From: an uncultured virus (IMG/VR IMGVR_UViG_3300032255_000005)
DNA: 42,601 nt
Virus record (IMG/VR): IMGVR_UViG_3300032255_000005
Location: 1-42,601 of that record
Strand: one strand, 5' to 3'
Made by a program: the position numbers and the translations under genes. The notes beneath the pieces were generated by a model. The model searched no databases. It saw nothing but the letters and a program-made list of their open reading frames with translations, and had not been told where the DNA came from. This document shows, in pieces, positions 1 to 42,522 of the stretch (the stretch's first letter is position 1; each line of letters starts with the position of its first letter).

Positions 1-80
1 ACTATATCGCTACACTTAAAAAAAAGCAAAAAAAAGCAGCTAACACATACGCGTTAACTGCTTGATTTGACTTACTTATT

Positions 81-125
81 TGGTGCGCCTGGCACGATTC
101 GAACGTGCGACCGCTCGGTTCGTAG
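81..125 (-). repeat. att core copy 1 (3' 45 nt of tRNA-Arg), left boundary of the small element
   Basis: TGGTGCGCCTGGCACGATTCGAACGTGCGACCGCTCGGTTCGTAG is identical to 5375-5419 and has one mismatch to 42446-42490. Confidence 0.95.
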
Positions 126-378
126 TGGCTAAAAGGTATAATTTAATCATTTAAAATCAACAACTTAAATGGCTCCGCCCTCACCCTATATTTCGCTAAA
201 ACTCGCTATCGCTCGTAGAGAGTTTATTCAACACTACAAAAATTAAGTTTTGACCTGCTTATATAGTCGTGAGATATTAAGCCCCCTCAATAAATGCGTT
301 ATATTTTTTTACTAATATATTTTCCAATTAAACGCTACCAATTATGAGTAAATCAGCAGTTACATGGAGTAAACTGAA

Positions 379-1764: not shown

Positions 1765-1815
1765 TACCTGTAATTGATAATATAATAAGTCCATACATTA
1801 CCGGCTTAGAAACTA

Positions 1816-2664: not shown

Positions 2665-2706
2665 CGTCCTGTATTCACCTCTTAAACATGCATAGTTTAC
2701 ATATCC

Positions 2707-4077: not shown

Positions 4078-4393
4078 AAAGCAACAGCCTGCCCTTTCCT
4101 TACCGAGTGCGCGTTGTCTAACAAAGCATCAAGCGGCGCAATATTTAGGTATTGGAGTGACTTTACTGACCGAAATCGGAGTACCCAATATCCGCTTAGG
4201 TCGTCGTATTGTCTACGATGTGCTTGACCTAGATCGTTGGCTCGATCAGTATAAGCATCGAGGGCGGGCCGAGGAGGATGTATGGCCCGAGAAAAAGGAC
4301 TCTATCGTCGAAAAGATTCACCCTACTGGTGGATTGATATCGTCTTATCAGACGGACGACGAGTATGCAAAAGTACTCGACTTAAAGTCTTAG
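4067..4393 (+). CDS. HTH DNA-binding protein / excisionase
   Basis: LTKHQAAQYLGIG...IRLGRRIVYDVLDLDRWL; overlaps the 5' end of the integrase. Confidence 0.8.
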   Translation: MVNKKQQPALSLPSARCLTKHQAAQYLGIGVTLLTEIGVPNIRLGRRIVYDVLDLDRWLDQYKHRGRAEEDVWPEKKDSIVEKIHPTGGLISSYQTDDEYAKVLDLKS

Positions 4394-5331
4394 CAGATGC
4401 TACAGAGTATCTGATCAACCTCAAGCAAAAGGCATATGACGATGCCCGTACGGGAATAAAACGTAATAAGACATGGCGAGAAGCAGTGGTACGGTATTCA
4501 CAAGAAAACCGTGATAAAAAATCACTAAGGGCTGATCTTGATAATTTACGCAAACTTGATCCGTATTTGGGCGATAAAATGTTAGAGCAGATCTGTATGG
4601 ATTTGCTTTGGCCGTTTATCCATCACCGCCGAGAAGTGGACGCGGTTCAACCTGCTACCATTAATCGTGCATTGGAAGTGGTTCGTCGTATCTTGCATTT
4701 AGCGCGTGATGAGTGGAATTGGTTATCACGGTTTCCCCGCATAAAAATGCTACGGGAACCTAAACGCCGCGTTCGCTTTATTACACGTGAAGAGGCCGAT
4801 AGATTGCTTGAGGCACTACCTGCGCATTTGCATGCAGTTGTGCAATTTGCGTTAAGCACCGGTTGTAGAATGTCGGAAATTTTACAACTGGATTGGCAAC
4901 GTGTTGATTTTGATCGTCGTGTTGCATGGCTCGATCCGGGCACAACGAAAAATGGGGAAGGACGCGGTATTCCACTAAACAAGGAAGCCACCCTCGCCCT
5001 TCGAAGTGTACAAGGACAGCATGCAAAATGGTGTTTTACCTTCAAAGGTAAGCCCATGAAGGCAATTGGATCATCATGGAAACGTGTACTCGAAAAGGTC
5101 GGGATTGAAAACTTTCGTTTTCATGACTGTCGTCATACATGGGCAAGTTGGCATGTAATGAACGGCACGAACCTGCAAGAGTTAATGGAACTCGGTGGCT
5201 GGAAGTCGTATGAGATGGTTCTAAGATACGCCCATCTTGCCCCTGAACACCTTGCACAAGCCGCTTCAAGAATTGAGCGAAAATGGGACGCTATTAGCGT
5301 TGGGAATGACTCTACGATTTCCCTACGCTAA
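4282..5331 (+). CDS. int: Tyrosine recombinase (integrase) of the small element
   Basis: TGCRMSEI, TTKNG, RFHDCRHTWASW, LGGW, RYAHL; adjacent to att. Confidence 0.95.
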   Translation: MAREKGLYRRKDSPYWWIDIVLSDGRRVCKSTRLKVLADATEYLINLKQKAYDDARTGIKRNKTWREAVVRYSQENRDKKSLRADLDNLRKLDPYLGDKMLEQICMDLLWPFIHHRREVDAVQPATINRALEVVRRILHLARDEWNWLSRFPRIKMLREPKRRVRFITREEADRLLEALPAHLHAVVQFALSTGCRMSEILQLDWQRVDFDRRVAWLDPGTTKNGEGRGIPLNKEATLALRSVQGQHAKWCFTFKGKPMKAIGSSWKRVLEKVGIENFRFHDCRHTWASWHVMNGTNLQELMELGGWKSYEMVLRYAHLAPEHLAQAASRIERKWDAISVGNDSTISLR

Positions 5332-5374
5332 GCAAAAAAAAAGACCTACGCAAAACGTAAGTCTTTGATTTGTA

Positions 5375-5419
5375 TGGTGCGCCTGGCACGATTCGAACGT
5401 GCGACCGCTCGGTTCGTAG
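5375..5419 (-). repeat. att core copy 2, junction between the small element and the prophage
   Basis: 45-bp direct repeat of the tRNA-Arg 3' half. Confidence 0.95.
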
Positions 5420-5474
5420 TAGTGTTCTTTGACTCCTTTTTTCCTCTTTAAATCAAACAGTTAACAGTACATTA

Positions 5475-5550
5475 CTCCCCCATAGAGCATAGAATCATGA
5501 CTTTTTAAGTCTTTGTTTTATATGGGCTTTAATTTTCTTGTGGGGGGAAT
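5475..5550. promoter_or_regulatory. Putative integrase arm-binding sites at the left prophage end
   Basis: CTCCCCCATAG (5475) and GTGGGGGGAAT (5540) resemble the CTATGGGGGGAT repeats at 42361 and 42380. Confidence 0.6.
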
Positions 5551-5646
5551 TACAGGGTTGTTATGGCGTCCCCAAGGGTAAGCATCGATAACCCTGCTAT
5601 TACATACATCCGCAACCTGTTAATAAATAAGGCTGCTTAAGCCTGG

Positions 5647-6000
5647 TCAGCTATTGGTAAACTCTACCAGCTTTTTTTCTAAAAGTTCGGTTAAATTGTT
5701 CTTACAAAAAACTTCGGCATATTGGGAGAACGTCTCAACATTAGTTGCATCTGAAACGCCCGTGAAGAACAGTACCTTTATATCCTTGTTTTGCTCGGTT
5801 AGCTGTCTCATAAGCTCGACCCCGTTCATATTAGGCATAAGTAGGTCGATAATGGCATGGGTGTATTTTTCTGGTTCATCATCGAAAACGTCTTTCACCA
5901 ACAAAGGTTCATTAAAAACAATGCACTTTTTATTGTGTTTGCGGAGTATCGCTTCAACAATTGTGGTTATCACGTCTGAGTCGTCAACAACTAATATCAT
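5647..6000 (-). CDS. Single-domain response regulator receiver (CheY-like)
   Basis: ILVVDDS, IIDLLMPNMNGVEL (phospho-acceptor Asp), FFTG, conserved Lys. Confidence 0.9.
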   Translation of the reverse strand: MILVVDDSDVITTIVEAILRKHNKKCIVFNEPLLVKDVFDDEPEKYTHAIIDLLMPNMNGVELMRQLTEQNKDIKVLFFTGVSDATNVETFSQYAEVFCKNNLTELLEKKLVEFTNS

Positions 6001-7785: not shown

Positions 7786-7985
7786 TTTTCCCCAACCTTA
7801 CCCGTTGTGGTTTTACGCAAATAAGCAATGTAACCCGCAAACGCCATCCCAATAATTTGAATCGCATTAGCCGGCAAATCCAACTGTGAAATATAAGGCT
7901 GCATTACAGATAAAATCGCAATCAACGCAGCCGTATCAAGCGTGCGTGATTTTTTAATAAACCCTTTATACTTAGGCATTTTCAT
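7782..7985 (-). CDS. Small 2-TM protein, putative holin/antiholin
   Basis: KSRT...two hydrophobic segments...YLRKTTT; next to the candidate endolysin. Confidence 0.55.
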   Translation of the reverse strand: MKMPKYKGFIKKSRTLDTAALIAILSVMQPYISQLDLPANAIQIIGMAFAGYIAYLRKTTTGKVGEK

Positions 7986-7991
7986 TCTCCT

Positions 7992-8420
7992 TTACCGCTC
8001 TTCCCATGTTATTGTTAAGTTATGTGTTTCACCTTCTTCTTTGGGATTAACCAAAGCGTGAAACTCTTCTAAAGCTTGGCGTGACGAAGTTACCATACCG
8101 GTATAATATGTTTTACCTAACCCGATACAGCCTTTAACGTCACGCTCATAATTCGCGACATGAACCAAACAGGCATAGCGCTTAGAATGCGCTTCTTTAA
8201 AATGGGTTATATTTTTTCTGTCATTAATTAAACAAAAAACCGTGCCGTACTTATCAGAATCATGCCTTTCTAATAAATATTCTCCTGAAGGAACGCAAGA
8301 TATTTCAGGGTAGTTATTATTCCAAGGCTTTTCCACGGTATAAAAAACAACATCACCAACAGAAAGAATCCCAAACGTTCCTTCAGATGTAGACTTAAAT
8401 CTTTTTAATGTGAGTTCCAT
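7992..8420 (-). CDS. DUF5675-like protein, candidate endolysin
   Basis: LKRF...TFGIL...YTVEKPW...SCVPSGEY...LVHVAN...DVKGCIGLG. Confidence 0.7.
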   Translation of the reverse strand: MELTLKRFKSTSEGTFGILSVGDVVFYTVEKPWNNNYPEISCVPSGEYLLERHDSDKYGTVFCLINDRKNITHFKEAHSKRYACLVHVANYERDVKGCIGLGKTYYTGMVTSSRQALEEFHALVNPKEEGETHNLTITWEER

Positions 8421-8439
8421 TTTCTTTTCCTTTAAACAT

Positions 8440-8460
8440 AAAAAAACACCCGAAGGTGCT
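8440..8460 (-). terminator. Rho-independent terminator after the tail-fibre gene
   Basis: Minus strand GCACC-TTCG-GGTGT followed by a T-run. Confidence 0.65.
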
Positions 8461-8506
8461 GGTGATAAAATAGTAATGTTTTGTTATTTGTGTTTTATGT
8501 TATTGG

Positions 8507-9736
8507 CTACAAAGCATCACAAGCGAAGCGGGAACCGGCGCTTCCGTTTAATTCCCATGGAGAGTTATTTAAATGTACTGTGCGCGAGCCGGCCAGTACG
8601 CCGTGGAACCAAGTACCCCCAACAAATACCGCACCTAACGATGTCGGTGTGTACATATAAAGCTGACCTACACCTTGACCTGCCATTGGGTCGTTCCACC
8701 CCCACCCCGCCGTACCGTCTTGACGAATAATAAACTCATCCAGCCACTTCCAAATGTTACCAACACAGTCAACAATATTATTTGCGCTCACTGCATTAAC
8801 GACTGCCCCTGTCGTTGTACGGCCTGTGTTTGTTGTTGCTGACCACGCATTAACATTATCTGCATTGTTACCCTGTGGACTACCTTCTGCGGCTTGATGG
8901 CTTTCATTTAATGACATCAAGCGTTTGCCTGTTCGTTTAGCAAGCTCATTAAAATTATACTGGTTTAAGCCTTCTGTTCCCGTAAGCGGAGTACCGCCAT
9001 AAACCGATTGGCTTGTCCCTGCGGATAATTTGCCGTTAGTCACAACCGGCGCAACATTTGCTGAAGCTAAATAAATATCTACCCAGAAGTTACCTACTTT
9101 CACCATGCCGGTAGGGTCGCACGTTGGGCGATTGATAAGATCCCAACAGCTGTTAGGTACAATCGCGCCGTTAGTTACATTCGCCTCCCACGGCGTAGTA
9201 ACATCAGCCCCGTAAACCGCAGAAGCACCATCAATCGGCGTACCCGCAGAATTAACAACACGAGCACGACCAAAATGAAACCCACCAATTTTGCGGGAAT
9301 TAGCAGCGCTGTATCCGGTTGGGAACGTGCTGTTTTTTGAACAAACAATTTTAGCCGTACCACTCGCATACTGCGTTGCGTAGGTATAAATATCATCACC
9401 CACTGCCAATGCAGTAAACGAACTATCGCGGTTGGCTGCTAAAACAGGGTTAAAATCTGTTTGAGCAGACATCATATACCCTTTACCGTTGCCGCCAATA
9501 TTCACCATGCCTTCGGGTAAATTTAAAGTATCGCCCGTCCCTTTTGAAATTTCGCCATTCAACGAAAAAAAGCCTGCGGCTTGTGACGGTAGAATAGGAA
9601 AGCCCCCTGGCGTTACGCCGTCATGAGCAACTAATATATTATCCGTTGTATTATAAGTGACCTCCTTAAGAGCGCCGACCATGACTGCATGCTCTTCTGC
9701 TGTGCCGAATCTAAATTCTTCTTGTGTTGCTCCCAT
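8507..9736 (-). CDS. Mtd-like receptor-binding tail protein (Mtd N-terminal motif plus FGE-type C-type lectin C-terminus)
   Basis: FRFGTAEEH...EVTYNT...VAHDGVTPGG; FWVDIYLAS; DCVGNIWKWLDE; GGTW..GVLAGSR...GSRFACDAL. Confidence 0.85.
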   Translation of the reverse strand: MGATQEEFRFGTAEEHAVMVGALKEVTYNTTDNILVAHDGVTPGGFPILPSQAAGFFSLNGEISKGTGDTLNLPEGMVNIGGNGKGYMMSAQTDFNPVLAANRDSSFTALAVGDDIYTYATQYASGTAKIVCSKNSTFPTGYSAANSRKIGGFHFGRARVVNSAGTPIDGASAVYGADVTTPWEANVTNGAIVPNSCWDLINRPTCDPTGMVKVGNFWVDIYLASANVAPVVTNGKLSAGTSQSVYGGTPLTGTEGLNQYNFNELAKRTGKRLMSLNESHQAAEGSPQGNNADNVNAWSATTNTGRTTTGAVVNAVSANNIVDCVGNIWKWLDEFIIRQDGTAGWGWNDPMAGQGVGQLYMYTPTSLGAVFVGGTWFHGVLAGSRTVHLNNSPWELNGSAGSRFACDAL

Positions 9737-34427: not shown

Positions 34428-35315
34428 CTATAAAGAGTTTACCCAGACCTCTTCACTGATTATTGAAACGCCCCTTCCGCTTTCTTTTAGTTCTTGTGCC
34501 TTTTCAATTTTTCGACCAAAAGAAGTATTTGCCCAGTCCCGACTGGATAAAGCGCCAACAACCAAATAATCCAGCTTAACTACAACCGTTTTGCAAGTAT
34601 TACCGCCCCGCTCTGTCGTTAGGTTCTCGCACGTTTTACGCGAGCCCTTAATAAACTTACCGGTAAAGCAAAACACCTTTCCATCAAACTCAACGCAATC
34701 CGGCTCATCCATCCCTAAGCGAACAGACATCCCAGAAACCTCACCGTGTTCGGTCACATGCCCACCAATCAAGTCAACAAGCACCCCATGCAAATGATTT
34801 CGTTCTTCGTCAGTAATAATGCCGTCTTTTAGAATATTATGAACGTTTGAAACAACTACACTAAGAGGCCATCTATCTTTCCATTCACCACATCGACGAA
34901 GCCAGCGAGAAAGGTTTTTAATTTCTTTATCATTCAGCACGTGATCAGCCGTCATACCTCGCGCAATACCAGTTAACCGAGTAATCGCATCATCAGCAGA
35001 ATATAAGCCATCATCAGACTCATTTTCTAACACTATATTAAGCAACCCCAACAGATCTTCCAGCTCATCAACAGAAACCCTGCCATCCGCCAAAATATCC
35101 GTAGTTAAATCCAACAAATCAAAAAAATCCGGATCACTCTTTAACCATAGCTCATTACTTCGTAGCCAGGCATCCAATAAAGCCGCCTCAATCTCATTCA
35201 AAGCCTTGTCCGCAGTAACGCCCTGACAAAACCCCATTAACTCAGCAAGCGCCTTTTCTTTATTGTTATGAAAATGTATCCCAAAGCCCGGTTGGCCATC
35301 TGCATCCTTATTCAT
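34428..35315 (-). CDS. BRCT-domain protein
   Basis: C-terminal FCFTGKF..GSRK.CE...GG...LDYLVVG...W...FGRKIEKA...IISEEVW; duplicated helical N-terminal repeats. Confidence 0.82.
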   Translation of the reverse strand: MNKDADGQPGFGIHFHNNKEKALAELMGFCQGVTADKALNEIEAALLDAWLRSNELWLKSDPDFFDLLDLTTDILADGRVSVDELEDLLGLLNIVLENESDDGLYSADDAITRLTGIARGMTADHVLNDKEIKNLSRWLRRCGEWKDRWPLSVVVSNVHNILKDGIITDEERNHLHGVLVDLIGGHVTEHGEVSGMSVRLGMDEPDCVEFDGKVFCFTGKFIKGSRKTCENLTTERGGNTCKTVVVKLDYLVVGALSSRDWANTSFGRKIEKAQELKESGRGVSIISEEVWVNSL

Positions 35316-35371
35316 ACACCCTCCTTATATATGGAATTTAAAAGTATACATAAAGAAAAAAAATAAAAACT

Positions 35372-35425
35372 TAGCAAAATGCTATTGACGGCTTTAGCAA
35401 ACTGCACTACATTAGCATTATGCTA
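35372..35425 (+). promoter_or_regulatory. PL-like promoter with OL-like operator triplet
   Basis: TTGACG (35385)-N17-TACATT (35408) overlapped by TAGCAAAATGCTA (35372), TAGCAAACTGCAC (35395), TAGCATTATGCTA (35413). Confidence 0.85.
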
Positions 35426-35674
35426 TTGCAGAATGTAAACAACAAAGGGAAAAACATTATGAGCAACATGATCACTTTACACCCTAGCGTAACCATAAAT
35501 CAGGCGCTCCAAATGCTACGCGACTACCCCGCAATAACCCGTATTGACGGCAACGACCGCCAGCGATTCCTAGTCACTCGCAGCGAACAAGGCAACATGG
35601 GGTTTGTGAAAGTCCCAAAACGCAAAGACCAGTTAAGCGGCCTACCCTGCAACCCAGTAGAAAGCAAAAACTAA
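35420..35674 (+). CDS. Hypothetical early protein; start likely 35459
   Basis: First ORF after PL; AAGGG RBS. Confidence 0.6.
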   Translation: MLLQNVNNKGKNIMSNMITLHPSVTINQALQMLRDYPAITRIDGNDRQRFLVTRSEQGNMGFVKVPKRKDQLSGLPCNPVESKN

Positions 35675-35985
35675 TGGCTGCGCACTTGAATACTTTAACC
35701 ATGCAAGAAGCCGCCAAGATCGTCGGCATCGGCTCAAAAAAATTATTTAAGTTACTCAGAGAGAAAAAAGTCCTAAATCAAAACAACCTGCCCTATCAAC
35801 GATACATCGATAACGGTTACTTAAAAGTAGATTCAGGCAGCTGGAACCACCCCGAAGTAGGCGAAAAGCTATACGCAAAAACCATCGTCACCGTAAAAGG
35901 GGTTGAGTGGATAGAAAATTTAATAAAACAACAACACCAGGTAATTAAAAATGAGCAGCCAACAGAACATAGAACAGCGATATAA
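35674..35985 (+). CDS. Phage antirepressor KilAC-domain protein
   Basis: AAKIVGIGSKKLFKLLRE...NLPYQRYIDNGY...TIVTVKGVEWI. Confidence 0.88.
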   Translation: MAAHLNTLTMQEAAKIVGIGSKKLFKLLREKKVLNQNNLPYQRYIDNGYLKVDSGSWNHPEVGEKLYAKTIVTVKGVEWIENLIKQQHQVIKNEQPTEHRTAI

Positions 35986-36127
35986 AGAAGCAATGTACCA
36001 CCTAAGTTGCCTAACCGTTTTTGTTGAACAAGGCTCGCCTGACGATTTTCCGTGCACACTAAAACAAACAAAAAAGTTTTTAGAAAAAGAAAACACACTC
36101 AAACAAGAAGCAAGCAATGCTAAATAA
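35951..36127 (+). CDS. Small hypothetical protein (58 aa)
   Basis: MSSQQNIEQRYKEAMYHLSCL...; fills the operon gap, below the ORF-track cutoff. Confidence 0.5.
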   Translation: MSSQQNIEQRYKEAMYHLSCLTVFVEQGSPDDFPCTLKQTKKFLEKENTLKQEASNAK

Positions 36128-36374
36128 CTTACTGATTATCGCAATAAGTAACGAAGCTCAATTATGGGGTATGGCAAGCAGCCACGCCCACCTGCAAAGC
36201 ATGTGGGAAAAAAGAATTAAAAAAGAAACACATCAGCTTACAGACAAGCAAGCTAAAGCCGTTGCAATTGCACAAGCTGGCGCATTTGCGCTAGCGATGC
36301 AGTTGGTTACTGTAAACATGATGCGTGATATGACTTTGATGTTGAAAATATATTCAGACATTAAAGGCAATTAA
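36117..36374 (+). CDS. Hypothetical protein; stop codon lies in the outermost attC core
   Basis: 85-aa ORF ending in AATTAAC. Confidence 0.55.
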   Translation: MLNNLLIIAISNEAQLWGMASSHAHLQSMWEKRIKKETHQLTDKQAKAVAIAQAGAFALAMQLVTVNMMRDMTLMLKIYSDIKGN

Positions 36375-36435
36375 CGCCCATGTTCACGGGAAAACGAGCG
36401 TTAGCGAGTGCATCCCGTGGAATTAATTGTTAGGG
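36369..36435 (-). repeat. attC: attC site (cassette 6)
   Basis: Minus: CCCTAAC-AATTA-ATTCCACG...CGTGAAC-ATGGGC-GTTAATT, extra C in L''. Confidence 0.9.
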
Positions 36436-36467
36436 TTTTGTGGTGTAAATAAATTAACGAGGGCTAT

Positions 36468-36764
36468 ATGAAGATGATGTCTTATGAGAAATACGCGGTC
36501 TTTACAGAATACCTCAATTACATGAAGGAGAACCCGTCTGTCACCCCAGCCAGACGCGAAATTAACGGGGCGATGTATATATGGGTTGAGGATGTATCCG
36601 GGCGTTCTCGCGGATTTTGGCTATCTGAGCCGAAAACAATAGAACCAACAAAAACCGAAATCAACGATGAAGAGGTGAGAGAGCTTCTGTTAGGTTCAAT
36701 GTCGCGGCTCCCTACTTTCGATGAGTTCGCGAAGCAGGTCAAAGATGATACTGACGACCCCTAA
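36468..36764 (+). CDS. Cassette 6 ORF, hypothetical
   Basis: GAGG RBS; stop codon inside CCCTAAC. Confidence 0.8.
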   Translation: MKMMSYEKYAVFTEYLNYMKENPSVTPARREINGAMYIWVEDVSGRSRGFWLSEPKTIEPTKTEINDEEVRELLLGSMSRLPTFDEFAKQVKDDTDDP

Positions 36765-36843
36765 CGGCGCTGTTAATTTGCGCCACAGATTGACCAGAGA
36801 AAAGAGCGGCGCTTACGGCGTCAAATTGAATGAATTGTTATGT
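36759..36843 (-). repeat. attC: attC site (cassette 5)
   Basis: Minus: ACATAAC-AATTC-ATTCAATT-TGACGCC...GGCGCA-AATTAAC-AGCGCC-GTTAGGG. Confidence 0.92.
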
Positions 36844-36863
36844 TTTTAACTGAGGAATGAAAA

Positions 36864-37049
36864 GTGGAAATTAGATTGAATGACGATGAAATTCGAGAAG
36901 CACTCACAGAAGCCTTAAATAGAAAGGTTGATTATGCCGTAACGGCTAAAGCTGAAGAATGCTGGTTTGAAGTTAAGGCTGGTGTAATTAATGGTGAAGA
37001 TGTCGATGATATTCACGATGTCCAGTTTTGCTTTAAGACAGACACATAA
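36864..37049 (+). CDS. Cassette 5 ORF, hypothetical acidic protein
   Basis: GAGG RBS; stop codon inside ACATAAC. Confidence 0.8.
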   Translation: MEIRLNDDEIREALTEALNRKVDYAVTAKAEECWFEVKAGVINGEDVDDIHDVQFCFKTDT

Positions 37050-37104
37050 CGATTAAGTTAAAAAGCGCCGCTTTTTGGCGTCCTTTTTGAACGCCTTGTT
37101 ATAA
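37044..37104 (-). repeat. attC: attC site (cassette 4)
   Basis: Minus: TTATAAC-AAGGC-GTTCAAAA...TTTTAAC-TTAATC-GTTATGT. Confidence 0.92.
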
Positions 37105-37124
37105 GGCGTTACCACGGAGGCAAG

Positions 37125-37331
37125 ATGAATATTGATGTAACAATAGAGCGAATTGACAACGGCTACATAGTTACCGGAAACGACTCAACAAAAAACAAAA
37201 ACTATTTTGTAAGCCTAGAAAAATTTGCTGAGTCACAAATTATTGAAGATTTACGAGAGCTAGACGCCGCGATACGCGAACACGAAAAACCAAATGAGCC
37301 GTTTACTTTCAAGATAACGAGTGACTTATAA
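37125..37331 (+). CDS. Cassette 4 ORF, hypothetical
   Basis: GGAGG RBS; IERIDNGYIV motif; stop codon inside TTATAAC. Confidence 0.82.
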   Translation: MNIDVTIERIDNGYIVTGNDSTKNKNYFVSLEKFAESQIIEDLRELDAAIREHEKPNEPFTFKITSDL

Positions 37332-37390
37332 CCGTTAAGTTAAAGGGTTGCGCCGCTTTTGCGCAATCCATTTTAAACGCCTTGTTATGC
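37326..37390 (-). repeat. attC: attC site (cassette 3)
   Basis: Minus: GCATAAC-AAGGC-GTTTAAAA-TGGATTGCGC...GCGCAACC-CTTTAAC-TTAACG-GTTATAA. Confidence 0.92.
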
Positions 37391-37408
37391 AAGGCATGGA
37401 GATAAAGA

Positions 37409-37723
37409 ATGACAGGCGACGAAATTAAAAAAGAAACCATGTGTATGGGCAACCTCAGCGACATTGAAGTGGCCAGCAAAGTTAGAATGTTAATGCGCAC
37501 AGATTTAGATCATGAGCCTGTTTGTCTGGCTGGCCGCGACCGGATTATGTATTTAAGTCAGCAACTAGAAAAGTGGCAACGCCTAGCTAAAGAACGCGGC
37601 GAGTTTATTATTAATGGAGAAGATTTAGGATACATAACAACGCCAAATTCTGAGAATGATAAGGCATACCATATTTTCCTTCGTTGCCAGTTGCTTGATG
37701 AACGTGCAGCACAAGAGGCATAA
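37409..37723 (+). CDS. Cassette 3 ORF, hypothetical
   Basis: GGAG RBS; stop codon inside GCATAAC. Confidence 0.82.
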   Translation: MTGDEIKKETMCMGNLSDIEVASKVRMLMRTDLDHEPVCLAGRDRIMYLSQQLEKWQRLAKERGEFIINGEDLGYITTPNSENDKAYHIFLRCQLLDERAAQEA

Positions 37724-37805
37724 CGACCAAGTAAGCGGATTTTAAAAGCAAGTGAAACGCCGCTTTTAAAAGTCCGAGCGTAGCGGCTTAACTGCCTTGT
37801 TATAT
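37718..37805 (-). repeat. attC: attC site (cassette 2)
   Basis: Minus: ATATAAC-AAGGC-AGTTAAGC...GGACTTTTAAAAGC...GCTTTTAAAATCC-GCTTACT-TGGTC-GTTATGC. Confidence 0.88.
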
Positions 37806-37828
37806 TTTTTATTAATTATAGGTGACTT

Positions 37829-38011
37829 ATGAGTAGTGATGAGCCAGAAACACCGCAATATGTAATTAACGAATGGTTGAAGCAGTGTACTTGCTGCCCT
37901 GAATGCGGACAGATGCGCCCATGTAACGGCGTGATGGCTGGGGGTATGTGTGACAGCGCATGTGATTGTGATGATGACGACCCTGATTACATGTTCAACG
38001 AGATACTTTGA
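37829..38011 (+). CDS. Cassette 2 ORF, small Cys-rich protein
   Basis: CTCCPEC...C...C...CDC; AGGTG RBS. Confidence 0.8.
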   Translation: MSSDEPETPQYVINEWLKQCTCCPECGQMRPCNGVMAGGMCDSACDCDDDDPDYMFNEIL

Positions 38012-38012
38012 A

Positions 38013-38085
38013 ATATAACGGCGCTGCTCAGTTGTTGCGACTGAGCGTAGCGAAAGAGCAATCAACCTGGAGAGAATTGTTATGT
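38013..38085 (-). repeat. attC: attC site (cassette 1)
   Basis: Minus: ACATAAC-AATTC-TCTCCAGG-TTGATTGC...GCAACAA-CTGAGC-AGCGCC-GTTATAT. Confidence 0.88.
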
Positions 38086-38342
38086 GTAATTGCAGAACGA
38101 TGAGAAGAACTTGGGAGGAAACACAAAACGGAAGGTTTGCACCAAGCAACCATGCTCCCGCTTGCGAGGATTATGAAACTAAAAGATACATTTGCCTGTT
38201 CGATGATGACGGCAGAAGTTTTATTGATACCGTTGAAAACCAATATTCTTTTATGTCGCACGATGATGGTAATTGGCGGCAATCGGATATTTATATAACA
38301 GAAGATCAATTTAATAAGCTGCAAGAGTACGTAGGCTTGTAA
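38082..38342 (+). CDS. Cassette 1 ORF, hypothetical
   Basis: ATG overlaps the attC core (gttATGt); GGAG RBS lies inside the attC arm. Confidence 0.8.
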   Translation: MCNCRTMRRTWEETQNGRFAPSNHAPACEDYETKRYICLFDDDGRSFIDTVENQYSFMSHDDGNWRQSDIYITEDQFNKLQEYVGL

Positions 38343-38343
38343 C

Positions 38344-38394
38344 ACATAACAGGTATTAGAAAGCCGCTTGGCTTCCTATCACAGCAGGATAAAA
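38344..38394 (-). other. attI: Putative attI site (core GTTATGT at 38344-38350)
   Basis: Lone GTT core with no attC palindrome, complementary to the R'' of the nearest attC, directly 5' of intI on the opposite strand. Confidence 0.75.
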
Positions 38395-39360
38395 ATGATG
38401 AATGGTAAACAACTCATTGAAAAGATACATGAAGCTTGTCGTATTCGGCATTTATCCCGCCGTACAGAGGAAGCCTATATTTATTGGATTCAAGATTATG
38501 CGCGTTTCTGTATTCAAAATCCATGGCCGGAAACTGAAGATAAAATTAATGCATTCCTTTCTCGCTTAGCGACAAAAAGAAACGTTGCTGCAGCAACTCA
38601 AAATGTTGCGCTCAACGCTGTTGTATTTTTATATCGCGATGTAAAAAAAGAACCTTTGGGTGACTTCTCTCAGTTCAAGCGAGCTAAAAAACCACATCGT
38701 TTACCTGTCGTGCTTTCAAAAAATGAAACGTCAATCTTACTATCGCACACCAAAGGTACTCATTGGTTAATTGCGAGCATATTATATGGATCTGGCTTAA
38801 GGCTAATGGAAGTTTTACGCTTAAGAATTAAAGATATTGATTTTGAAAGACAAACAATTACTGTCCGCGCAGGCAAAGGTGATAAAGATCGTGCAGTAAT
38901 GTTGCCGTCATCATTAACTGAACCTTTGCAACAACAAATAGAGCTGGCAAAAAGAAACCATAACAATGACTTAGCCAGTGGCTATGGTTCGGTTTATCTG
39001 CCTGACGCACTTGCAAAAAAATATAAAAATGCACCTTATGAGTTTAAATGGCAGTTTTTATTTCAAGCAAGTCGCGTAGGTCCAGTTCCAGAAACAGGAG
39101 AAGTTCGCCGACACCACATACACCACACAGCGGTTCAAAAAGCCATACGGCATGCAGTCGTAACATCTGGCATAGATAAAAAAATATCATGTCACACATT
39201 ACGACACAGCTTCGCAACTCACTTATTAGAGAGCGGCACAGATATACGGACAATACAACAACTGCTCGGACACAAAGATTTAAGTACAACGATGATTTAT
39301 ACCCACGTGGCAATTACCGGCGCATGCGGCGTTATTAGCCCTTTAGAGGCTTTAGCATGA
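38368..39360 (+). CDS. intI: Integron integrase; likely start 38395
   Basis: TEEAYIYWI, VAAATQNVALNAVVFLY, LPVVLS, YGSGLRLME, GKGDKDR, the IntI-specific insertion VYLPDALAKKY...WQFLF...RRHH, HTLRHSFATHLL, LLGH, TMIYTHV. Confidence 0.96.
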   Translation: MASYHSRIKMMNGKQLIEKIHEACRIRHLSRRTEEAYIYWIQDYARFCIQNPWPETEDKINAFLSRLATKRNVAAATQNVALNAVVFLYRDVKKEPLGDFSQFKRAKKPHRLPVVLSKNETSILLSHTKGTHWLIASILYGSGLRLMEVLRLRIKDIDFERQTITVRAGKGDKDRAVMLPSSLTEPLQQQIELAKRNHNNDLASGYGSVYLPDALAKKYKNAPYEFKWQFLFQASRVGPVPETGEVRRHHIHHTAVQKAIRHAVVTSGIDKKISCHTLRHSFATHLLESGTDIRTIQQLLGHKDLSTTMIYTHVAITGACGVISPLEALA

Positions 39361-39395
39361 GAAAAAGCTTCATAAGAGTAGGCGCACCGATATAA

Positions 39396-39551
39396 ATGAT
39401 GAAAAAAATAAATATTGCTTTTGTCGTTTTTGTCTTGTGGACATTATTCCCAGTAATCGCTTTATGGCTAATGCTAACGCACCCAGGCAAGTGCGCTTTA
39501 ATCTGGAAAAAAGAACTTGAAAATTCATGGTGGTCTAAAGATGAAAAGTAA
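39396..39551 (+). CDS. Small membrane protein (51 aa)
   Basis: MMKKINIAFVVFVLWTLFPVIALWLML...; overlaps the methylase start; below the ORF-track cutoff. Confidence 0.45.
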   Translation: MMKKINIAFVVFVLWTLFPVIALWLMLTHPGKCALIWKKELENSWWSKDEK

Positions 39552-41034
39552 AGATGTAAAACCATTCAGCTGGAAAAGATCACCACAATTACGGTTATCA
39601 CTCGAAGACGAAATCAATATAGACAATTTCGCCGGTGGTGGTGGCGCAAGCATGGGGTTTGAAATAGCAACAGGGCATTCGATTGATGTCGCAATCAATC
39701 ACGACCCAGAAGCCATTGCAATGCACGAAGCAAACCATCCAACAACAAAACATTATATGTCAGACGTTTTTGAGGTTGACCCTATCGAAGTATGCAAAGG
39801 CAAACCCGTTGGCCTTGCCTGGTTTAGCCCAGACTGCAAACACTTTTCCAAAGCAAAAGGCGGTAAACCGGTAGATAAAAAAGTAAGAGGCTTGGCCAGA
39901 GTCGCAATAAAATGGGCAGAACTTGTAAAGCCCAGAATCATTTTTTTAGAAAACGTCGAAGAGTTTCAAGACTGGGGTCCACTGCTTGAAAATAATAAAC
40001 CCTGCCCCATTCGCAAAGGATTATCGTTTCGACGCTTTGTACGCGACTTTGAAAAACTAGGCTACCAGGTTGAATGGCGCGAACTACGCGCATGCGATTA
40101 TGGCGCCCCAACAATACGCAAAAGATTATTCTTAATTGCTCGATGTGACGGACAACCCATCACATGGCCAGAAGCCACACACGGAAAAGAAAAAGGCCTA
40201 AAGCCCTACAACACCGCAGCGGACTGCATTGATTGGACTACTCCAATTCACTCAATATTTTTAACTAAAGAAGACGTTAAAAATAAAAAACTTAAAATAA
40301 AAAGACCGCTTGCAGAAAAAACATTAACAAGAATAGCAAAAGGTATGCAGCGTTACGTGATCAACTCAGATAAACCTTTTATCGTTCCATCATTCATTAC
40401 CGAACACGCAAACGGCTCAAACCAACGCAACATGCCTACAGATGAACCGCTCAGAACAATTTGCGCGCAAGTAAAAGGGGGCCACTTTGCCTTAGTATCC
40501 GCTTTTCTCGCAAAACATTACAGCGGCGTAGTCGGTCATGGTGTAAAACAGCCAATAGGAACCATTACATCAATAGATCATCATTCACTGGTAAGCAGTC
40601 ACTTGCTACAACTAAGAAATAACCAGTTCGGGCAAGACGTAAACAAACCCATTCCAACATTAACCGCCGGCGGTACCCATATTGGTGAAATACGCGCATT
40701 CTTAGTTAAGTATTACGGAACAGATCAAGACCCACGACTTAGTGAGCCAATGCACACAGTCACATCCAGAGATCGTTTCGGCTTAGTAACAGTCGAAGGC
40801 CAAGATTATCAAATTGCCGATATTGGGATGAGGATGTTAGCGCCACGCGAACTTTATCGCGCTCAAGGCTTTCCAGACGAATACATTATTAACCCAACAT
40901 ACAACGGCAAACCCTTAACAAAAGTCGCTCAAGTACGAATGTGCGGCAACAGCGTTAGCCCAGTTGTCGCCGCAGCCCTTATTAAAGCGAACCTAGTCAA
41001 CGCCAATAATGTTATTAGACGAGCGGAGTGTTGA
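39517..41034 (+). CDS. DNA (cytosine-5)-methyltransferase, orphan; start likely 39541
   Basis: FAGGGG, SPDCKHFS, LENVEEF, YGAPTIRKRLF, RAQGFP, CGNSV. Confidence 0.95.
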   Translation: MKIHGGLKMKSKDVKPFSWKRSPQLRLSLEDEINIDNFAGGGGASMGFEIATGHSIDVAINHDPEAIAMHEANHPTTKHYMSDVFEVDPIEVCKGKPVGLAWFSPDCKHFSKAKGGKPVDKKVRGLARVAIKWAELVKPRIIFLENVEEFQDWGPLLENNKPCPIRKGLSFRRFVRDFEKLGYQVEWRELRACDYGAPTIRKRLFLIARCDGQPITWPEATHGKEKGLKPYNTAADCIDWTTPIHSIFLTKEDVKNKKLKIKRPLAEKTLTRIAKGMQRYVINSDKPFIVPSFITEHANGSNQRNMPTDEPLRTICAQVKGGHFALVSAFLAKHYSGVVGHGVKQPIGTITSIDHHSLVSSHLLQLRNNQFGQDVNKPIPTLTAGGTHIGEIRAFLVKYYGTDQDPRLSEPMHTVTSRDRFGLVTVEGQDYQIADIGMRMLAPRELYRAQGFPDEYIINPTYNGKPLTKVAQVRMCGNSVSPVVAAALIKANLVNANNVIRRAEC

Positions 41035-41266
41035 AATAGCGCCAATGCAAAAACTCAACCTAACATTAGCCGAAATAAAGGATATTACCGGTAAAACTCA
41101 TCGCCAAAAACAAGCGTTAGTGTTGGCCGCAATGAGCATTCCCTTTAAAATACGCCCAGATGGGACTATCCTTGTTAGCAGAGAAGCATACAACACATCG
41201 ATGGGCTGTAATCACGACCAACCAGAAAAAGTGATTGAGCCAGACTTTGGGATGATGGCAAACTAA
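41009..41266 (+). CDS. Excisionase-like protein (DUF4224-type)
   Basis: LTLAEIKDITG...QALVL..MSIPFKIRPDG; directly before the integrase. Confidence 0.8.
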   Translation: MLLDERSVEIAPMQKLNLTLAEIKDITGKTHRQKQALVLAAMSIPFKIRPDGTILVSREAYNTSMGCNHDQPEKVIEPDFGMMAN

Positions 41267-42342
41267 TGGCACCTAAAAACCGCAACAAAGAAAACAAGCC
41301 GTTACCAGAACGCTGGAGATACCGCTACGGTGCTTATTATTATCGTGTTCCACCAGGATTAGAATCTGAATGGGACAATAAAAAAGAATTTAAGCTTGGT
41401 CGAACTATATCCGAAGCCTACAAAGAATGGTCAAAACGCATTCAGCAAAACGCCGAAGATGTGCATACAATGCAGCAAGCCTTCGATCGCTATTGTTTAG
41501 AAGTTATCCCAAACAAAGCGCACAACACCCAACAATCAAATTTAATTAGCATAAAAAAATTACGTCCCGTTTTTGCAAACATAGAACCCGATAAAATATT
41601 ACCCAAGTACGCTTATAAATATTACGATATAGCCGCGAAAACACGCGGTAAAACCGCCGCAAAGCACGACATACAAGTGCTGCGCCACACACTAACCATG
41701 TGCGTTAAATGGGGCGTGATAGACGTCAATCCACTTATGGGGCAGATCCGACTAGAAGGCTCAGCCTCACGCAAACGATTAGTCGAAGACTGGGAAATAC
41801 ATGAATGCTTAAACTTAAAACCGAAAATAACATCTAAAGCGGTTAACTTAATAAAACTCTACATTGAACTAAAACTAATGACAGGTTTTAGCAGAATAGA
41901 TTTATTAAAATTAAAGTTAAGTGACTTAAAAGAAGACGGCATTCATAGCCAGCGACAAAAAACAAAAAATACTACGGGCAAGCGGTTAATCATTACCTGG
42001 ACAAATGAACTCAAAGAATTAACCGATGAAATTTTAAAGCTGCCTCCACGCCGCGTAGGAAACACTTATCTATTCGTTACCCGGCAAGGCAAGCCCTACT
42101 TCAATGAAAAAACAATGAAGTGCAATGCATTTGATTCAATCTGGCAGCGCTACATGGACAGAGTGATCGAACTAACCAAAGTAACAGAACGTTTCCACGA
42201 ACACGATCTCAGAGCCAAAGTTGCAAGCGACAGCGCAACACTAAGCGAAGCCAGCGAACGTTTAGGTCACGCCTCAACCGAAACGACCCAGCGATTCTAC
42301 CGAAGAAAACCAACCGAAATAACACCACTAAAAAGAAAATAG
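41266..42342 (+). CDS. int: Prophage tyrosine integrase
   Basis: TGFSRIDL, QKT, FHEHDLRAK, LGH, RFYRRK; adjacent to att/tRNA. Confidence 0.93.
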   Translation: MAPKNRNKENKPLPERWRYRYGAYYYRVPPGLESEWDNKKEFKLGRTISEAYKEWSKRIQQNAEDVHTMQQAFDRYCLEVIPNKAHNTQQSNLISIKKLRPVFANIEPDKILPKYAYKYYDIAAKTRGKTAAKHDIQVLRHTLTMCVKWGVIDVNPLMGQIRLEGSASRKRLVEDWEIHECLNLKPKITSKAVNLIKLYIELKLMTGFSRIDLLKLKLSDLKEDGIHSQRQKTKNTTGKRLIITWTNELKELTDEILKLPPRRVGNTYLFVTRQGKPYFNEKTMKCNAFDSIWQRYMDRVIELTKVTERFHEHDLRAKVASDSATLSEASERLGHASTETTQRFYRRKPTEITPLKRK

Positions 42343-42445: not shown

Positions 42446-42522
42446 TGGTGCGCCTGGCACGATTCGAACGTGCGGCCGCTCGGTTCGTAGCCGAGTACTC
42501 TATCCAGCTGAGCTACAGGCGC
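42446..42522 (-). tRNA. tRNA-Arg (anticodon ACG)
   Basis: GCGCCTG acceptor, TAGCTCAGCTGGATAGAG D-arm, CTCGG-CTACGAA-CCGAG anticodon arm, GTTCGAATC, CCA end; 77 nt. Confidence 0.97.

Follow-up and report, generated by a model that had tools for sequence, protein, structure and literature searches.

Location of the integron within a temperate prophage

The window, by which we mean the whole stretch of DNA analyzed here (42,601 nt; IMG/VR record IMGVR_UViG_3300032255_000005 from an uncultured virus), corresponds to a single 42.6 kb contig, and the host chromosome lies outside it. It contains a prophage of ~37 kb, inserted at tRNA-Arg and equipped with its own integrase as well as with the terminase, portal, major capsid and tape-measure genes of a temperate phage. 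This prophage encloses an integron locus comprising an intI gene, an adjacent attI site and six attC-bounded cassettes. The phage context is defined by the following features:

5375..5403, no strand assigned: attL-like copy of the 3' part of tRNA-Arg, the left end of the prophage; 29-nt exact direct repeat of 42446-42474
39517..41034, + strand: C5 cytosine DNA methyltransferase (PF00145, 108 bits), belonging to the phage backbone, not a cassette
41009-41266, + strand: phage excisionase (phrog_1266 match)
41266-42342, + strand: phage integrase, 358 aa (ORF, place beside tRNA-Arg, and sequence)
42446..42522, - strand: tRNA-Arg(ACG), the integration site, identified with ARAGORN; attR = 42446-42474, delimited from the repeats

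The integron is internal to the prophage, 3 kb from attR and 31 kb from attL, and is flanked by phage early genes on one side and by dcm-xis-int on the other. Between 35459 and 42342 every ORF is on the + strand, forming a rightward early operon that runs through int. The phage integrase ORF has no NCBIfam match, and was assigned on the basis of the ORF, its position and its sequence. In the window, the covariance model R1 (described below) detected no attC adjoining the methyltransferase gene. Two elements of the original prediction are thus borne out: a complete integron is present in a temperate phage genome, and its recombinase is separate from the prophage's own integrase, which is found together with the excisionase beside the tRNA-Arg.

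The integrase and attI

38344..38397, + strand: attI; core ACATAAC, then AGGTATTAG, a small hairpin and a Shine-Dalgarno motif
38398..39360, + strand: intI, integron integrase of 320 aa counted from the ATG at 38398 (TIGR02249; hallmark residues)

The recombinase ORF extends from 38368 to 39360, with the ATG at 38398 as the likelier start. It reaches 423.1 bits with the NCBIfam model TIGR02249 ('integron integrase'; cut-off 265), the match covering model positions 2-315 of 315 without a break. With XerC and XerD the scores are 148.9 and 142 bits, each under the cut-off of the model. In the alignment of the window IntI with IntI1 and a Shewanella IntI, the catalytic residues R136, K161, H267, R270, H293 and Y302 are invariant, and so is the IntI insertion (LPDALAKKY..W..F..RRHH) by which the recombinase had originally been recognized; within it, P203, A205, L206, K209, Y210, W219, F223, R239, H240 and H241 are invariant with IntI1. 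Judged from its sequence, the recombinase is a true integron integrase with the IntI-specific additional domain.

Upstream of intI lies a lone core, ACATAAC at 38344-38350, separated by 47 nt from the intI ATG and followed by no GTT partner box. The homology between the window and a second phage contig, L159, starts at the ATAAC of this core. The motif AAC-AGAKATT is common to six members of the clade (the window, L159, L206, L208, L214 and L217), in the last five of which the spacer between the core and the ATG measures 37-53 nt. Both the unpartnered state of the core and the conservation with L159 from the core onward agree with its earlier identification as attI. A CALIN, i.e. an attC cluster lacking an integrase, is ruled out, as the intI ATG lies only 47 nt past the last core.

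attC sites and cassettes

The attC sites (all on the + strand, which corresponds to their bottom strand) and the cassette ORFs are listed below in the order in which they approach attI; "extras" are extrahelical bases, and for each cassette the ORF length on the + strand is given against that on the - strand.

36369..36435, + strand: attC S0, the most distal from intI; one extra G on the 3' arm; R1 13.0 bits, E 0.73, rank 5 in the window
36468..36764, + strand: cassette ORF 1, 98 aa, orphan; unit 36375-36764; 98 vs 74 aa
36759..36843, + strand: attC S1; G and T as extras on the 3' arm, separated by 6 bp; R1 16.5 bits, E 0.14
36864..37049, + strand: cassette ORF 2, 61 aa; unit 36765-37049; 61 vs 33 aa
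37044..37104, + strand: attC S2; three extras on the 3' arm; R1 32.6 bits, E 7.8e-5, the top match in the window
37125..37331, + strand: cassette ORF 3, 68 aa; unit 37050-37331; 68 vs 36 aa
37326..37390, + strand: attC S3; two extras on the 3' arm; R1 23.2 bits, E 0.0062
37409..37723, + strand: cassette ORF 4, 104 aa; unit 37332-37723; 104 vs 36 aa
37718..37805, + strand: attC S4; R1 27.8 bits, E 7.3e-4
37829..38011, + strand: cassette ORF 5, 60 aa, Cys-rich; unit 37724-38018; 60 vs 31 aa
38013..38085, + strand: attC S5, the nearest to attI; three extras on the 3' arm and one on the 5' arm; R1 weak, 9.8 bits, E 3.3, rank 11
38082..38342, + strand: cassette ORF 6, 86 aa; unit 38019-38349; 86 vs 21 aa

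The six cassettes are bounded by pairs of complementary 7-mers (36429/36759, 36837/37044, 37098/37326, 37384/37718, 37799/38013 and 38079/38344), all of them exact. In each cassette, the opening bases are the complement of the inverse core in the cassette's own attC. When consecutive pairs of this kind were linked by a detector, the window yielded a chain of six, against a maximum of three (reached 3 times) in 40 shuffled loci. The covariance model R1, trained on 30 attC bottom strands from five other integrons with the window and L159 left out, was searched against both strands of the 42.6 kb with filters off and E up to 10. Sites S2, S4, S3, S1 and S0 are the top five of its 18 matches, all aligned end to end on the + strand, and E is below 0.01 for three of the six attC sites. 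S1 is, moreover, 90% identical to one attC of L159.

According to the alignment of the arms, the + strand of S0 to S5 has 1, 2, 3, 2, 7 and 3 extras on the 3' arm and 0, 0, 0, 0, 0 and 1 on the 5' arm. Four of the six sites have G as their first extra base. Nivina et al. 2016 (PMC5027507) describe such a layout of extrahelical bases for the attC bottom strand. The polarity was calibrated on the canonical array of the Shewanella phage M16-3, whose top strand has 12 extras on the 5' arm and one on the 3' arm; summed over the 18 arrays that terminate in intI, the strand encoding the integrase has 5 extras on the 5' arms and 196 on the 3' arms. As far as these sequence features go, the position of attI and the polarity of attC relative to intI are canonical: in each attC, the bottom strand, which is the recombinogenic one, coincides with the strand on which IntI is encoded. 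When the six sites were folded as single strands without constraints, the textbook hairpin did not appear, and the folds were not clearly better than those of shuffles (z from -0.9 to -2.2). The 7-mer pairs are present exactly as first listed, and the prediction of six attC sites is upheld by the independent model for five of them and by the extrahelical asymmetry for all six.

The cassettes are 282-392 nt long. Within each, an attC comes first, and a small ORF follows it on the same bottom strand, aimed toward intI. A purine-rich motif resembling a Shine-Dalgarno sequence stands ahead of each + strand ORF, e.g. GAGGAA ahead of the GTG start of ORF 2. A scan of the six cassette proteins against Pfam and PHROG gave no matches, and hence no sign of a resistance gene or a transposase, in keeping with the earlier statement that the array is free of IS and resistance genes. 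ORF 1 found only itself among 5.8 billion proteins. ORF 4 has 27 homologues in the protein database, and in the viral contig L003 a homologue (67% identical over 55 aa) adjoins the attI of an IntI gene. In run X1, the unitig that corresponds to cassette 3 (37090-37332) has a depth of 129 compared to 56-59 in the flanks, a weak hint of extra copies.

Orientation and expression of the cassettes

In the canonical design, cassette ORFs are located on the attC top strand and are read outward from the Pc promoter in or near intI/attI, while intI itself is typically placed under SOS control by a LexA box that overlaps its promoter. The integron in the window departs from this design: all six cassette ORFs occupy the attC bottom strand and run in the same direction as intI and the phage early operon. 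Moreover, the spacer between the attI core and the intI ATG, only 47 nt long, is too short to accommodate either an outward Pc or an intI promoter under LexA control. An exact LexA box (CTGT-N8-ACAG) is absent from the window, where matches with one mismatch number 8 against 12 expected by chance; L174, a canonical relative, has the LexA box CTGTATAAAAAAACAG before intI. In canonical controls the cassette ORFs occupy the opposite strand (0+/12- in L174, 2+/9- in M16-3 and 0+/6- in L218), and in M16-3 every cassette CDS is annotated on the - strand. By the crude longest-ORF rule applied to ORF strand in other loci, 17 were mixed and 8 divergent out of the 52 IMG/VR loci that had 2 kb or more of upstream sequence. 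The reversal of cassette ORFs relative to bacterial integrons is the unusual and apparently new feature. The original prediction correctly recognized the array as part of a complete integron and overlooked this reversal.

35385..35413, + strand: promoter-like site at the head of the early operon, TTGACG-17-TACATT, 9/12 (consensus match only); candidate driver of the array and intI

Promoter-like matches in the region number 12, fewer than in shuffles (mean 18.7). The array, attI and intI are co-directional with the early genes that end in xis-int, and we infer that transcription starts from a phage promoter upstream, near 35.4 kb, and proceeds through the cassettes into intI. Synthesis of IntI would presumably coincide with activity of the early operon, and insertion of new cassettes would take place at attI, the end farthest from the promoter, by a cut at AA|C of the + strand. 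A point against this reading is that attC S2 resembles an intrinsic terminator on the + strand.

Related phages and natural variation

L159 was assembled independently from another sample and encodes an IntI 84% identical to that of the window. Only two stretches of the window match it in blastn: 36761-36841 (one attC, 90%) and 38346-39350 (attI and intI, 79%), the latter beginning inside the attI core. The L159 array comprises about 8 different cassettes, all with + strand ORFs and none common with the window, and its flanks are unrelated to those of the window, yet the same attI-intI resides in the same kind of operon.

In the tree, the window IntI groups with those of four other phage contigs (L159, L208, L217 and L211) in a clade with SH-aLRT of 99, all members of which have reversed arrays. 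In L208, L217 and L211, genes for RecE/RecT, phage integrase, terminase, portal and protease are found within a few kb of intI. On the + strand of sister arrays, cassette ORFs with Pfam domains encode RtcB (300 bits), two N6_N4 DNA methylases and a DUF1643 protein, and in seven reversed-array loci all 10 R1 matches are on the intI strand. In a larger tree the reversed arrays do not form one clade, 10 changes being needed; there, the 16-row clade of the window includes 8 rows (two MAG rows among them) behind a branch of length 3.86, which we take to be mis-extracted frames.

In run X3, the full form of the array coexists with a form that lacks exactly one cassette. The latter is represented by a single contig (depth 3.27, 30 nt on the shorter side, marked 'between: not known'), in which a joint 37719->38015 with an overlap of 6 ambiguous letters (ATAACG) skips 295 nt, i.e. 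attC S4 with ORF 5 (unit 37724-38018). This joint is what recombination between two attC sites, cut at AA|C of the + strand, should leave after excision; sites of reverse polarity should give 37800->38080. Contigs of runs X1 and X2 carry the array of the window without variants, X1 unitigs tile 34500-41500 with overlaps of ~30 nt and no differences, and 97% of the sampled words are present in X2. The original suggestion that the phage captures and shuffles cassettes is supported, at the level of sequence comparison, by the wholly different array behind the same attI-intI in L159, by the ORF 4 relative beside the attI of L003, a third phage contig, and by the one-cassette deletion in X3.

A probable phage-native integron lineage and its alternatives

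We consider it probable that this functional-looking integron is indigenous to a temperate phage lineage, with canonical recombination sites, reversed cassettes and transcription that would be driven by the phage. Such an integron may recombine at present, and its cargo presumably serves accessory or counter-defence roles of the phage. It is unlikely that we are dealing with a real integron turned into a dead relic, in which the array is fixed and the differences from L159 date from an older period of activity. The uniform arrays in X1 and X2 and the poor R1 scores of three of the six attC sites would fit such a relic, but IntI is full-length with every catalytic residue intact, the six 7-mer pairs show no decay, X3 contains the one-cassette deletion alongside the full form, and two phages with 84% identical IntIs have no cassette in common.

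Integrons in temperate phages have already been published by Qi et al. 2023 (PMC9892861), and the complete ones were mostly captured passively from bacteria; the bare category is therefore not new, while the cassette geometry found here appears to be. The same origin can be considered for the window, in which case all or part of a common chromosomal integron of bacteria would have been acquired passively through imprecise excision or recombination and would have no role in the phage, and the attC loop motif GAGCGWAGCGA is indeed common to the window and the canonical metagenomic array L174. We regard this scenario as improbable: the locus is internal, enclosed by phage genes on both sides, L159 combines the same attI-intI and kind of operon with unrelated flanks, the nearest scorable IntIs come without exception from phage contigs whose arrays are reversed, the orientation of the cassette ORFs is contrary to that in L174, L023 and L028, which are arrays of the bacterial type, and the LexA box of L174 is missing.

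It is very improbable that the cassettes are expressed canonically, either from a leftward Pc-like promoter in or beside intI that yields - strand products, or from + strand ORFs with promoters of their own. A promoter-like site does occur on the - strand inside intI (39048->39020, 9/12 matches) and cassette 1 has a - strand ORF of 74 aa; however, promoter-like matches are overall rarer than chance would give, and the ORFs on the - strand reach only 21-74 aa, one of them (37766-38149) running across a cassette boundary. The + strand ORFs, on the other hand, fill the cassettes, carry Shine-Dalgarno motifs and include one with 27 homologues, Pfam domains lie on the + strand in sister cassettes, and cassettes of 282-392 nt are too small for separate promoters. 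Finally, an assembly chimera between a phage contig and an integron from another genome is barely conceivable: Logan unitigs do break at attC and several attC or cassette pieces are deeper than the flanks, but X1 and X2 cover the region as described, L159 has the same architecture, and att repeats lie on both sides of the whole element.

Returning to the phage-native integron, it is tempting to generalize, with roughly even chances of being right, that temperate phages keep an integron lineage of their own, whose mirror-image cassettes are read from an early promoter and constitute a private, expression-isolated gene pool. If so, synthesis of IntI would be coupled to the phage programme rather than to LexA, bacterial cassettes would be silent in phage arrays and phage cassettes silent in bacterial ones, and the pool of small accessory or counter-defence genes (exemplified by RtcB and the DNA methylases of sister arrays) would be reshuffled during infection.

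Comparison with known integrons

Among prophages, a close parallel is the Shewanella element vB_SspM_M16-3 (MZ568829), a complete integron in a prophage record, with the attC bottom strand likewise on the intI-coding strand. However, its IntI is 45% identical to that of the window and, according to Qi et al. 2023 (PMC9892861), shares 95% identity with the IntI on the S. oneidensis chromosome. Furthermore, its cassette CDS diverge from intI in the canonical manner, a LexA site is annotated before intI, and the integron is at the edge of a cryptic prophage thought to be dead. The Vibrio anguillarum phages Va_90-11-286_p16 and PF430-3_p42 are inducible temperate phages with an IntI gene (46% identical to ours), and one of the two also has cassettes. 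What they carry is part of the super-integron of the host, with Vibrio-type attC, taken along at excision (Qi et al. 2023, PMC9892861), whereas the integron of the window is internal and has phage-borne relatives.

Co-directional intI and cassette genes are also found in the inverted integron-integrase group of Treponema and others, as described by Cury et al. 2016 (PMC4889954) and Wu et al. 2013 (PMC3607928). Set against those descriptions, the window keeps the canonical orientation of intI, which runs counter to the attC top strand. Its array lies ahead of intI, and the elements that have changed direction are the ORFs, reversed with respect to attC. With the attC bottom strand on the intI-coding strand, the window falls outside that group as it is presented there.

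The class 1 mobile integron (IntI1, attI1, Pc and the LexA-regulated PintI) differs from the window, whose IntI is 45% identical to IntI1, in that the integron of the window has no room for Pc and PintI in its 47-nt spacer, no LexA box, no resistance genes, and cassette ORFs on the bottom strand. Nonetheless, the two share the recombinase family and its catalytic residues, the attC R and L boxes, G/T extrahelical bases on the bottom strand, and the core GTTRRRY/RYYYAAC.

An integron with mirrored cargo in a temperate phage

The analysis described here shows that in the integron at 36369-39360 the recombination geometry of IntI, attI and attC is canonical, while the cargo is mirrored and set in a co-directional phage operon. 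We call an array reversed if its cassette ORFs are on the attC bottom strand and point towards intI, and canonical if they are on the top strand and point away from it. The window, a single metagenomic contig of 42,601 nt in IMG/VR, exhibits PHROG matches to a terminase large subunit, a portal, a fusion of head protease and major capsid protein, a tape measure, tail proteins, a DnaB-type helicase and a repressor. Because the 3' part of its tRNA-Arg(ACG) gene is copied exactly at two further positions, this gene houses two elements in tandem:

75-109 and 5375-5403: exact copies of the 3' part of the tRNA-Arg gene
75-5403: left island of 5.3 kb, bounded by these repeats, at the same tRNA-Arg site as the prophage
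4282-5331: tyrosine recombinase of the left island (PF00589, 111 bits)
5404-42445: prophage of about 37 kb, with excisionase and integrase at its right end
41009-41266, + strand: excisionase
41266-42342, + strand: phage integrase
42446-42522: tRNA-Arg(ACG)

From 35459 to 42342 all genes are on the + strand. The left island also encodes three proteins (461, 282 and 456 aa; GC low, 32-34%), none of which has a Pfam match; the element may represent a satellite or a defence island.

The recombinase

The ORF at 38368-39360 matches the TIGR02249 "integron integrase" model with 423.1 bits (cut-off 265) in a single stretch covering model positions 2-315 of 315, compared to 149 and 142 bits, far under the cut-offs and in two stretches each, for the XerC and XerD models. 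In an alignment with IntI1 (from a P1 record), the IntI of the Shewanella prophage vB_SspM_M16-3 (MZ568829, with an annotated canonical integron; M16-3 below) and three other sequences, the catalytic R, K, HxxR, H and Y are invariant, and so are the residues of the IntI-specific insertion LPDAL..KY...W...F....RHH. The profile score and the invariant insertion agree with the original prediction that the recombinase is IntI rather than XerC/D, and it is indeed separate from the prophage integrase encoded at the right end. Because the sister phage contig L159 has ATA where the window has its first ATG, the intI start is, by this comparison, probably ATG 38398.

attC sites and attI

The six exactly complementary 7-mer pairs proposed as cassette boundaries are all present. 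A dynamic-programming search for chains of "GTTnnnn ... exact complement nnnnAAC" links, separated by attC-sized gaps, returned precisely these six pairs in the window. Applied to the controls, it gave a chain of 13 in M16-3, whose integron is annotated, and one of 12 in L174, a canonical array from a metagenome; none of 40 shuffled loci gave a chain longer than 3, and this length was attained three times. We built a covariance model of attC because an Rfam scan of 35500-39800 yielded no attC family; its seven sub-threshold chance matches were set aside as having no bearing on attC. The model (R1) was trained on 30 attC sites, on the intI-coding strand, from five other integrons (L174, M16-3, L218, L233 and L209). 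Its 12 base pairs are backed by covariation (77.5% of cells paired vs 67.1% in shuffles), and slide 0 gives the best fit of the structure. Searching both strands of the entire window with filters off, R1 placed on top S2 (32.6 bits, E 7.8e-5), S4 (27.8 bits), S3 (23.2), S1 (16.5) and S0 (13.0), where S0 is the intI-distal site; all five matches are full-length, at the core-predicted coordinates and on the + strand. The attC model has S0-S4 as its five best matches; the sixth proposed site, S5 (next to attI), is weak (9.8 bits, rank 11).

Single-strand DNA folds of the sites, either unconstrained or with only the AAC/GTT pairs forced, were dropped, as local hairpins dominate and z-scores are weak; arm alignment and the covariance model were used in their place. 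Arm alignment lacking a free central spacer was unsuccessful at five of the six sites, and the arm-score scanner, used as a detector on the entire window, gave 13 hits with just four true sites among them, and was kept solely for arm asymmetry at sites defined otherwise. The DNA pattern ATAACNNTTAAGTTAAA has at least 117 single AT-rich chance matches in IMG/VR and is uninformative.

The lone core beside intI is attI, as had been proposed, and S0 is the last attC: a GTT box was not found 3' of the core at 38344, and the homology between the window and L159 starts inside this core, at its ATAAC. Apart from a small hairpin and an SD motif, the 47-nt spacer between core and ATG is featureless, and a LexA box is absent from it; at the same place L174 has a spacer of about 230 nt, which includes CTGTATAAAAAAACAG.

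Two other features of the region can be mentioned. S2 looks like an intrinsic terminator (37057-37081, + strand, a GC stem followed by a T run), and might act as an attenuator for the proximal cassettes and intI if the array is read rightwards. A palindromic stretch of 78 nt (36311-36388), which extends over the end of the ORF 36117-36374 and into S0, could be a decayed seventh attC. It gave rise to one scanner hit and, symmetrically on the two strands, to sub-threshold "mir-3202" Rfam matches.

Polarity of the sites and of the genes

According to the accessible text of Nivina et al. (PMC5027507), G is the usual first extrahelical base and T the usual last one, 6 bp apart. In the anchored arm alignment of the + strand, S0-S5 have 1, 2, 3, 2, 7 and 3 extra bases in the 3' arm, and 0, 0, 0, 0, 0 and 1 in the 5' arm; S0, S1, S2 and S5 have G as their first extra base, and in S1 a T follows this G after 6 bp. 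With the identical script, the top strand of the M16-3 array has 12 extras in the 5' arm and one in the 3' arm. In the 18 arrays with an intI gene at their end, the intI-coding strand has 196 extras in 3' arms and five in 5' arms. Because the extras sit on the 3' arms of the + strand, as on the intI-coding strand elsewhere, the + strand is the attC bottom strand, matching every canonical integron. The GC/AT skew of the attC interiors is a weak indicator (+ strand mildly purine-rich, +0.10 and +0.02; S2 and S3 opposite), and polarity could not be decided from the left or right ORF of S1 in the window and L159, both neighbours being different.

In canonical integrons the cassette genes are on the top strand and read away from intI. 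Every annotated cassette CDS of M16-3 is on the strand opposite to intI, and none of the 12 cassettes of L174 has its longer ORF on the intI strand; in the window, all six cassette ORFs are on the attC bottom strand. The longest ORFs per cassette have 98, 61, 68, 104, 60 and 86 aa on the + strand and 74, 33, 36, 36, 31 and 21 aa on the - strand; those on the + strand fill the cassettes, are preceded by SD-like motifs and often terminate in the TAA of the next core. This arrangement differs from the inverted integron-integrase group, in which, as far as the accessible texts describe it (PMC4889954, PMC3607928), intI is co-oriented with attC and the array follows intI.

Reversed arrays in related phages

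L159, a contig of 44.6 kb from another sample, encodes an IntI 84% identical to that of the window (single-protein scan). As predicted, cassette content varies between these related phages: in blastn against 21 kb of L159 the window shares one attC (90%) and attI/intI (79%) and nothing else, and L159 has about eight other cassettes, with all ORFs on the + strand and most 7-mer pairs exact. Its extrahelical bases are in the 3' arm in five of seven sites, the remaining two scoring too low to be read, and phage genes (methyltransferase, SSB, DnaC-like loader and integrase) flank the locus. One trait is common to the attC sites S0, S4 and S5 of the window, T2, T3 and T7 of L159 and all sites of L174, which hints that a single attC family may span reversed and canonical integrons.

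A profile scan of IMG/VR returned at least 573 stretches, at least 516 of them encoding IntI relatives, and the best 80 were examined. Upstream sequence of at least 2 kb before intI is available for 52 of these best 80; the genes there are mostly co-directional with intI in 27, divergent in eight and mixed in 17. Among the arrays examined, chains of at least four links ending at intI have only + ORFs in six loci (L208, L277, L217, L227, L234 and L279); they are canonical in L218, L233, L212, L174 and M16-3. A tree of 28 IntI rows groups the window with L159, L208, L217 and L211 (SH-aLRT 99), and every array in this clade is reversed. In a 129-row tree the window clade comprises 16 rows (SH-aLRT 98), seven reversed and nine unscored; eight of the 16, including two MAG rows, lie behind a branch of length 3.86 and are regarded as frame-extraction errors. 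Reversed arrays are also found elsewhere on this tree, and 10 changes are required. The three further clade members of the smaller tree are phages:

L208: RecE/RecT and a phage integrase
L217: terminase right after intI, then portal and protease
L211: terminase and portal

The attI motif AAC-AGAKATT, with a spacer of 37-53 nt, is common to six members of the clade, and in seven reversed-array loci all 10 R1 hits (E <= 0.1) are on the intI strand.

The record of Virus Rctr41k (L205, KX853513) encodes at 4680-5678 an IntI-like protein (40% identity) annotated as "xerD". The genes upstream are tightly packed and co-directional, with no attI or attC visible; this protein may be an IntI relative with another use.

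Natural variation in public sequencing runs

The locus is partly present in six public runs, five labelled as microbial-mat metagenomes and one with a coded organism, and contigs from four mat runs were compared with 34500-41500. Contigs of run X1 tile this region with zero differences. In run X3, one contig joins 37719 to 38015, and the missing 295 nt are exactly attC S4 with ORF 5; ATAACG is common to both sides of the joint, and the skipped part is also covered within X3, which seems to contain both the full form and the one lacking this cassette. Excision on the + strand, from the AA|C point of S4 to that of S5, predicts this joint; the opposite polarity would predict a loss of 280 nt (37800->38080). 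It is a thin joint: one contig of depth 3.27, with a shorter side of 30 nt and possible extra letters between the sides. The joints 36841->37371 and 38490/38502->38821 and the back-joint 37779->37371 were rejected as deletions, as they derive from related arrays or an L159-like intI.

Unitigs end at attC sites. In X1 the unitig of cassette 3 is twice as deep as its flanks, which fits extra copies elsewhere and proves nothing. In X1 and X2, contigs over 37090-37332 (cassette 3) and 37542-37775 (the S4 region) have 2-4x flank depth and many loose ends begin at attC borders, which suggests that these attC types or cassettes also occur in other arrays of the same mats.

Cassette proteins

None of the six cassette proteins has a match in Pfam or PHROG; a sequence search of the PDB with ORFs 4 and 6 was empty or insignificant, and an Atlas search with ORF 6 gave nothing usable. 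ORF 1 (36468-36764) is an orphan, matching only itself among 5.8 billion proteins. Its residues 30-69 faintly resemble the first half of ubiquitin, on which we base no claim: the E-value of 2e-15 against poly-ubiquitin chains is a product of summation over repeats, and against single or di-ubiquitin it is 0.04-0.5, which is not significant. ORF 4 has 27 homologues among the 5.8 billion proteins, one of which (67% identity over 55 aa, flanked by GTTAAAC/GTTTAAC) lies in the viral contig L003, directly ahead of the attI that belongs to an IntI gene. In L003 the module "GGTTTAAC core, attI, intI" is present twice (4571-5489 and 7865-8963), the first intI being truncated; the ORF 4 homologue stands just ahead of copy one, and three larger + ORFs without an intervening attC stand ahead of copy two. 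Among the products of larger cassettes in reversed arrays are RtcB (300 bits), two N6/N4 DNA methylases and DUF1643, together with a weak match to PAPS reductase; three of the eight in this test were without a hit.

Proposed working and novelty

Integrons are bacterial gene-stockpiling devices, and to our knowledge one design has been treated as universal: the promoter faces outward, the ORFs occupy the attC top strand and IntI is under SOS control. The presence of an integron in a temperate phage is already known, because Qi et al. 2023 (PMC9892861), in their accessible text, report three complete integrons and one In0 in temperate phages, as well as 17 CALINs, among 10,705 phage genomes. As described there, the published phage integrons look like borrowed bacterial ones. 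In the open-access literature, with that accessible text as the sole source on phage integrons, no description of reversed cassettes was found; among 50,697 phage records, tblastn of the window IntI matched 12, none with more than 46% identity, and blastn of the integron locus matched none.

Our results suggest that phages have rebuilt the integron platform for themselves, with the recombination chemistry kept, the cargo polarity opposite and the LexA box gone, and with expression presumably coming from the phage operon. A phage promoter (a weak candidate is at 35385-35413) would transcribe the cassettes and then intI, so that IntI would be made along with the phage early genes instead of under LexA control. 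Cassettes would enter at attI, i.e. at the promoter-distal end, and the cargo may have phage accessory or counter-defence roles. If true, this would account for some phages swapping small early or counter-defence genes as discrete units, and would imply a second cassette pool, mis-oriented by standard pipelines. It would also be relevant to the unsolved question of how cassettes are made, since here attC stands 5' of the gene on the coding strand, and recombination assays could draw on compact attI/IntI pairs of about 1 kb.

In several phage records DNA methyltransferase genes are found near the IntI gene yet outside the arrays:

Window, 39517-41034, + strand
L205, 6792-7991 and 10114-10842
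L159, 6298-6918

Methylases are also noted in phage CALINs in the accessible text of Qi et al. 2023 (PMC9892861).
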